Source of the DNA: Escherichia coli
GTDB lineage: Bacteria; Pseudomonadota; Gammaproteobacteria; Enterobacterales; Enterobacteriaceae
DNA: 64,000 bases
Reading direction: 5' to 3' (one strand)
Assembly: GCF_003334815.1 (NCBI RefSeq)
Contig: NZ_QOWO01000012.1
Part shown: positions 37,796-38,071 of the stretch, piece by piece
Numbering within the stretch: the stretch's first letter is position 1
Layout of the letters: every line of letters starts with the position of its first letter
Notes under the pieces: generated by a model
The model's database searches: none
Told to the model about the DNA's origin: nothing
Seen by the model: only the letters and a program-made list of their open reading frames with translations
Made by a program: the position numbers and the translations under genes

Positions 37796-37859
37796 GTGAT
37801 GAAGTTCCCTGGGCTTTGTCGGTGAAATGTCAGGCACCAGAGTAAACATTGTGTTAATG

Positions 37860-37891
37860 GACGTCAATACATCTGGACATCTAAACTTCTT
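37860..37891. promoter_or_regulatory. Tandem met boxes (MetJ operator) in the metB/metJ divergent region
   Basis: Four tandem 8-bp units GGACGTCA ATACATCT GGACATCT AAACTTCT. Confidence 0.75.
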
Positions 37892-38071
37892 TGCGTATAG
37901 ATTGAGCAAATCCCAAATAGCCGTTAAAATTATATGCATTATCACGCCGACAGGTGCATTACACGATGTCACGGTAACGCCTGTACGGTAAACTATGCGG
38001 GTTTACGGTCAGTACCCACATCAACTGTGTGGTCTGGTCTCAATTTATTGACGAAGAGGATTAAGTATCTC

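Follow-up and report, generated by a model that had tools for sequence, protein, structure and literature searches.

A published MetJ operator in the metB-metJ intergenic region of Escherichia coli: four met boxes shared by two divergent transcription units

Positions 37859..37890 of the stretch of Escherichia coli DNA analysed here, referred to below as the window (64,000 nucleotides in total length), almost certainly constitute the MetJ operator shared by the divergent metBL and metJ transcription units, the binding of MetJ to it being documented in the literature. The identical 32-mer appears in Table S1 of Augustus & Spicer (2011) as the operator common to metJ and metB, with four boxes located at 63 bp from metB and 181 bp from metJ. 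This identity, together with the reproduction of the published scores, confirms the observation originally made from the DNA letters and makes the site a published one. What is present here is the E. coli metJ/metBL operator as already described, known for decades, and not just another member of the same family. Compared with the operator of E. coli K-12 (Saint-Girons et al. 1984; Augustus & Spicer 2011), the locus is the same and displays no difference, the 32-mer, the number of boxes and the distances separating the array from the metB ATG (63 bp) and the metJ ATG (181 bp) all being identical. The site serves as a positive control, in that a real operator is recoverable from sequence alone, with a one-base error in the register and an undercount of the boxes at metF. 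In addition, it pertains to a classic repressor-operator system, known for its MetJ/SAM structure (1CMA), its cooperative binding to tandem boxes and its relevance to methionine and SAM strain engineering.

The window belongs to the E. coli chromosome. A segment of approximately 1.1 kb spanning the metB-metJ region occurs in all 5426 complete E. coli genomes, with 100% identity to many strains, and the metB-metJ gap taken alone is found in 5426/5426 of these genomes at ≥90% identity and is 100% identical to that of the K-12 derivative DH1. In the E. coli genome collection, the gap gave 5429 matches, two of which are located on plasmid records and could correspond either to F-prime-type chromosomal inserts or to assembly artefacts. 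According to the RefSeq annotation of an identical strain, katG, metF, metL and metB follow each other on the minus strand, and metJ, yiiX, rpmE and priA come next (Table 1). The four Met proteins, MetJ, MetB, MetL and MetF (610.8 bits for the latter, vs a cut-off of 382), pass the curated NCBIfam cut-offs over their full length, and residues 2-105 of MetJ match PDB entries 1CMA, 1CMB and 1CMC. The cognate repressor required by a MetJ operator is therefore encoded in the genome, as indicated by both the NF003622 equivalog and the match to 1CMA. With the metB start codon, on the minus strand, ending at 37795 and the metJ ATG starting at 38072, the 276-bp gap attributed to these divergent genes by the sequence-only reading proved exact. 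Two long ORFs that run across the gap (36635..37972 on the minus strand and 37934..38389 on the plus strand) were rejected as genes and treated as upstream extensions of metB and metJ, since, for both genes, the match to the family model begins at residue 1 of the protein as annotated.

Table 1. Position of the genes, met boxes and candidate promoter elements discussed in the text (positions refer to the window).
Feature	Position	Strand	Remarks
metF operator, four boxes GCACATCT ATCCGTTT AGACGTCC AGATGTAA	33893..33924		24.92 bits, passes published thresholds
metL, aspartate kinase / homoserine dehydrogenase II, second gene of metBL	34200..36632	-	NF007003, 1458 bits vs cut-off 582
metB, cystathionine gamma-synthase, 386 aa	36635..37795	-	NF005961, 872 bits vs cut-off 690, aligned 1-386/386
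metB-metJ divergent intergenic region	37796..38071		276 bp
candidate metB -10 TACTCT	37839..37844	-	predicted; 17-nt spacer from TTGACG
met box 1 GGACGTCA	37859..37866		6/8; 6.87 bits; in published list
candidate metB -35 TTGACG	37862..37867	-	predicted by relaxed consensus scan; inside box 1 and first base of box 2
met box 2 ATACATCT	37867..37874		6/8; 8.57 bits; in published list
candidate upstream metJ promoter TGGACA-18-TAGATT	37874..37903	+	predicted by consensus scan; -35 inside boxes 2/3
met box 3 GGACATCT	37875..37882		6/8; 8.96 bits; in published list
met box 4 AAACTTCT	37883..37890		6/8; 6.78 bits; in published list
candidate second metJ promoter TTGAGC-17-TAAAAT	37902..37930	+	predicted by consensus scan; -35 starts 12 bp past box 4
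PmetJ3 -10 overlap, ATG-proximal promoter; candidate hexamer TAAACT at 37989..37994	37969..37998	+	mapped CRISPRi spacers
metJ, met repressor, 105 aa	38072..38389	+	NCBIfam NF003622, 222.7 bits vs cut-off 110

The four boxes are contiguous and in phase, and match the palindromic 8-bp met box consensus AGACGTCT in 24 of their 32 positions, a single register offering four consecutive boxes with six matches each. This represents the top score for a four-box array in the 64 kb, with a binomial expectation of 2.7e-4 per window, and the maximum reached by 200 dinucleotide-preserving shuffles was 22. The matrix and thresholds of Augustus & Spicer (2011), which require at least one quarter of the consensus score for each box (3.15 bits) and at least the consensus score (12.58 bits) for the total, were run over the whole window. 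The array totals 31.18 bits, in agreement with the published value of 31.2, and only one other array in the 64 kb, that of metF, passes the thresholds. The shuffles scored with the same matrix (100 in number) contained a mean of 0.6 arrays per window, with a top total of 17.6 bits, and the weight-matrix scan proposed as a check by the sequence-only reading thus detected a significant array at the locus. This reading had located four tandem 8-bp boxes at 37860..37891, approximately 65 bp upstream of metB. The number of boxes, the span and, within 2 bp, the distance were right, but the phase was shifted by +1 nt; read in the shifted register, the boxes score only 0, 0, 0 and 2 of 8, and the published matrix gives them -16.6, -17.1, -12.6 and -4.3 bits.

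The idea that these repeats resemble met boxes only by chance, the intergenic DNA being AT-rich, could draw some credit from the limited match of every box to the consensus (only 6/8) but deserves practically no weight. None of the shuffles equalled the array, either in consensus matches (0/200) or in matrix bits (0/100), the expectation per window is very low, and the array, besides being a published operator, is kept in 80/80 species; chance occurrence is refuted by both the shuffles and the cross-species conservation. The sequence-level features by which a MetJ operator is recognized all occur at this site, i.e., at least two contiguous in-phase repeats, box and total scores above the matrix thresholds, a location in the promoter region of methionine genes and conservation at the orthologous loci. 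Other consensus matches of two to three boxes, starting at 9164, 30868, 31455 and 32068, were discarded as falling under the published thresholds, and three of the four lie within the katG coding region (30452..32671).

An operator made of five boxes, extended on the metJ side by a weak box TTGCGTAT at 37891..37898, was also considered. This octamer is in phase with the array, matches the consensus in four of eight positions and is nearly invariant, and the homologous position in Providencia and Budvicia (TTACGTTT / TGACGTGT) passes the matrix threshold, which leads to five or six boxes in these genera. The E. coli octamer, however, fails the published matrix (-0.88 bits vs 3.15) and was rejected as a box; moreover, the published list records four boxes at metB/metJ, and the conservation of the octamer is equally accounted for by an overlapping metJ promoter candidate, whose -10 hexamer TAGATT starts at 37898. 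A fifth box is thus improbable, and the operator is considered below as an array of four boxes.

The conservation of the operator was investigated by a MetJ-based scan which, with one genome per species, provided 80 Enterobacterales loci, including Citrobacter, Klebsiella, Enterobacter, Pantoea, Erwinia, Pectobacterium, Serratia, Photorhabdus, Providencia, Hafnia and Budvicia. Both the divergent orientation of metB and metJ and the in-phase array occur in 80/80 loci, with four boxes in 75 of them and five or six in the remaining five (four Providencia and one Budvicia), and the array totals range from 28 to 44.5 bits. The distance from box 1 to the metB ATG is confined to 50-66 bp vs 94-352 bp from box 4 to the metJ ATG, which indicates that the array is anchored to metB rather than to metJ. 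A footprint built from 81 sequences displays a single strongly conserved block, at about 37857..37935, which consists of the boxes followed by TTGCGTATAGATTGAGCAAA and AAATAGCCGTTAAAATTATAT. The boxes and the adjoining 45 bp or so are nearly invariant, and the remainder of the gap, corresponding to the metJ leader, is poorly conserved.

Some lineages depart from this general scheme. The Providencia and Budvicia arrays reach up to 44.5 bits, include the perfect box AGACGTCT, and carry their extra boxes beside the core of four, on one side or on both. The register does not change among diverged E. coli strains, in which the boxes occasionally contain single-base changes. In strain GPEC1054 (positions 165-195 of its locus), box 1 is changed to GGGCGTCA and box 3 to AGACATCT. 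Computed by hand from the published matrix, this box 1 comes to approximately 2.1 bits, under the single-box threshold of 3.15, and the weaker box 1 and improved box 3 possibly form a compensating pair.

In the literature, MetJ is described as a repressor made of a homodimer, which binds the 8-bp metbox; several such dimers can be assembled on neighbouring metboxes, and at least two adjacent boxes are required for functional repression (Augustus & Spicer 2011). MetJ's affinity for its operators is increased 100-1000-fold by the co-repressor SAM in published work. Owing to this increase, four dimers should coat the 32 bp of the array when SAM is plentiful. One ribbon-helix-helix homodimer would occupy each 8-bp box, and neighbouring dimers are reported to contact each other (Phillips et al. 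1989; Somers & Phillips 1992, PDB 1CMA).

Candidate promoter elements predicted by consensus scans on both strands suggest how this occupancy could affect transcription. On the metB side, the conservation of the candidate -35 hexamer TTGACG is inseparable from that of box 1. The candidate -10 hexamer TACTCT matches the -10 consensus in only 3/6 positions and is absent from the output of the standard promoter scan; in the footprint of 81 sequences, its conservation is best at T1, A2 and T6. On the metJ side, the upstream candidate TGGACA-18-TAGATT possibly corresponds to PmetJ1 and the second candidate TTGAGC-17-TAAAAT, located just outside the boxes, possibly to PmetJ2; both are nearly invariant among the 81 sequences. 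The candidate -35 hexamers TTGACG (minus strand, 37867..37862) and TGGACA (plus strand, 37874..37879) stand back to back inside the 32-bp array, 6 bp apart, and a repressor bound to the array would, with this predicted geometry, exclude RNA polymerase from both. A search of the Cappable-seq and SMRT-Cappable-seq supplements for start sites of metB and metJ returned no match by gene or coordinate.

A perfect TATAAT hexamer also occurs on the metB strand at 37934..37929, within the conserved block, and its bases are common with those of the plus-strand TAAAAT candidate. Were metB transcribed from this upstream hexamer, MetJ would block elongation at the boxes, located at approximately +30 to +65, and repression would proceed by roadblock and not by occlusion. 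In spite of the perfect -10 hexamer and its location inside a conserved block, such an arrangement is very improbable: the corresponding -35 (TGCACC) matches in 3/6 positions and lies in unconserved sequence, no extended -10 TG occurs, and the same bases are used by the TAAAAT hexamer of a candidate metJ promoter on the plus strand. In addition, a proximal metB promoter, to which the occlusion described above would apply, is favoured by the fixed spacing from the boxes to the ATG and by the conservation of TAnnnT at 37839..37844.

The two transcription units differ in the strength of their control, metBL being tightly controlled and metJ only about two-fold autoregulated. The autoregulation of MetJ is reported by Augustus & Spicer (2011) and the references therein (Saint-Girons 1984; Shoeman 1985); PMC3228920 contains gel shifts and lacZ repression ratios, and autoregulation is dealt with in its references 10 and 11. 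Three promoters, one of them constitutive, have been described for metJ, and its autorepression amounts to approximately 0.5, i.e., about two-fold, the weakness of which is explained by the constitutive promoter. The ATG-proximal promoter PmetJ3 was placed on the window by means of the CRISPRi spacer sequences that Cress et al. (PMC5240198) designed over its -10 region. The stretch lies approximately 100 bp downstream of the boxes, which fits PmetJ3 as a non-repressible promoter; its remoteness and its constitutive character would both account for the only two-fold autoregulation. The sequence-only reading had proposed that MetJ represses metBL and autoregulates from one shared region. The identities of the genes, the published operator and the literature all support this proposal, with the qualifications that the autoregulation is weak and that the position of the array is set with respect to metB, not metJ.

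Taken to the extreme, these qualifications would make the array a functional operator of metBL only, its effect on metJ being incidental and the level of MetJ being mainly set by the constitutive downstream promoter. Such a reading agrees with the fixed distance to the metB ATG as opposed to the variable distance to the metJ ATG, and with an autorepression of only about 0.5 in the presence of a constitutive promoter. It is nonetheless unlikely, taking into account that the 45 bp or so adjoining the boxes on the metJ side, with their two plus-strand promoter-like sites, are nearly invariant in the 81 sequences, that the -35 of one metJ promoter candidate is located inside the boxes, and that, according to the literature, metJ is autoregulated in E. 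coli and 96% of species have metboxes at this gene. The array is therefore best regarded as an operator common to both units.

The metJ-side leader is the variable part of the region. In Serratia, Pectobacterium and Samsonia (four loci), the metB-metJ gap reaches only 185-187 bp, and box 4 is separated from the metJ ATG by 94-96 bp vs 181 bp in E. coli, so that the region bearing PmetJ3 seems to be missing or compressed. Since such short leaders leave little room for PmetJ3, the strength of autoregulation may differ by lineage. It is tentatively suggested, as a possibility more doubtful than not, that this strength depends on the presence of the box-independent promoter in each lineage. The evolutionary plasticity of the leader (94-352 bp) represents the only, and mildly, new angle on this operator. 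The possibility that the long metJ leader contains a structured RNA was rejected: the Rfam search of the metB-metJ gap gave no match, the z-score of the fold is -1.38 (with 15/200 shuffles folding equally well), and the leader is poorly conserved and variable in length.

The metF operator, located approximately 4 kb away in the metJBLF cluster, resembles the metB/metJ operator in consisting of tandem, contiguous 8-bp met boxes recognized by the same repressor. It differs by its number of boxes (five in the classical literature, four by the matrix), by its lower total (24.9 vs 31.2 bits), by its location at 41 bp from the ATG, where it overlaps the -10 region according to the literature, and by serving one gene and not two divergent ones. 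The metF entry of Augustus & Spicer (2011) similarly gives 24.95 bits, four boxes and 41 bp from metF. The classical count of five boxes corresponds to 33893..33932, and the fifth one, AGATGAAG at 33925..33932, fails the published matrix with -7.65 bits. The earlier reading had located three metF boxes at 33909..33932. Two of them, AGACGTCC (10.35 bits) and AGATGTAA (5.09 bits), are genuine by the matrix and the third is the poor AGATGAAG; the two metF-proximal boxes, GCACATCT at 33893 and ATCCGTTT at 33901, had been omitted. The comparison of box counts that it recommended accordingly yields four for the shared metB/metJ array and four (matrix) or five (classical) for metF, of which three was an undercount. 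The phasing said to be common to metF and metB holds solely as a contiguous 8-bp period in both arrays. RefSeq also annotates, on the plus strand and divergent from metF, a lysine-rich hypothetical protein of 44 aa (WP_000660586.1, MKEKPKGVNRKMTNDGEEKSGKMKK..., 33927..34061), a putative gene whose ATG is located inside the weak fifth box AGATGAAG.

Outside the window, the divergent metE/metR operator similarly offers one met-box array common to two divergent genes of the met regulon, one of which encodes a regulator. However, it contains three boxes, and the regulator is the activator MetR and not the repressor itself. More generally, the ribbon-helix-helix repressors Arc, Mnt, CopG and ParG read DNA through a beta-ribbon and bind cooperatively to repeated sub-sites. 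MetJ differs from them by its need for the co-repressor SAM and by its contiguous 8-bp repeats, which occur in arrays of 2-5 or more.

Apart from the operator, REP-type repeats occur directly downstream of metJ, at 38420..38540, and explain why the number of places matched by the 1.1-kb query reached a median of 15 per E. coli genome. The same area contains a match to Rfam ES036/CssrF (38440..38481, minus strand, 39.6 bits vs a gathering score of 37.6) and a match to naRNA4 (38485..38536) below its gathering score. Further downstream, an L31-Gammaproteobacteria ribosomal-protein leader is located upstream of rpmE, at 39461..39513 on the minus strand, with 60.1 bits vs a gathering score of 33.2.
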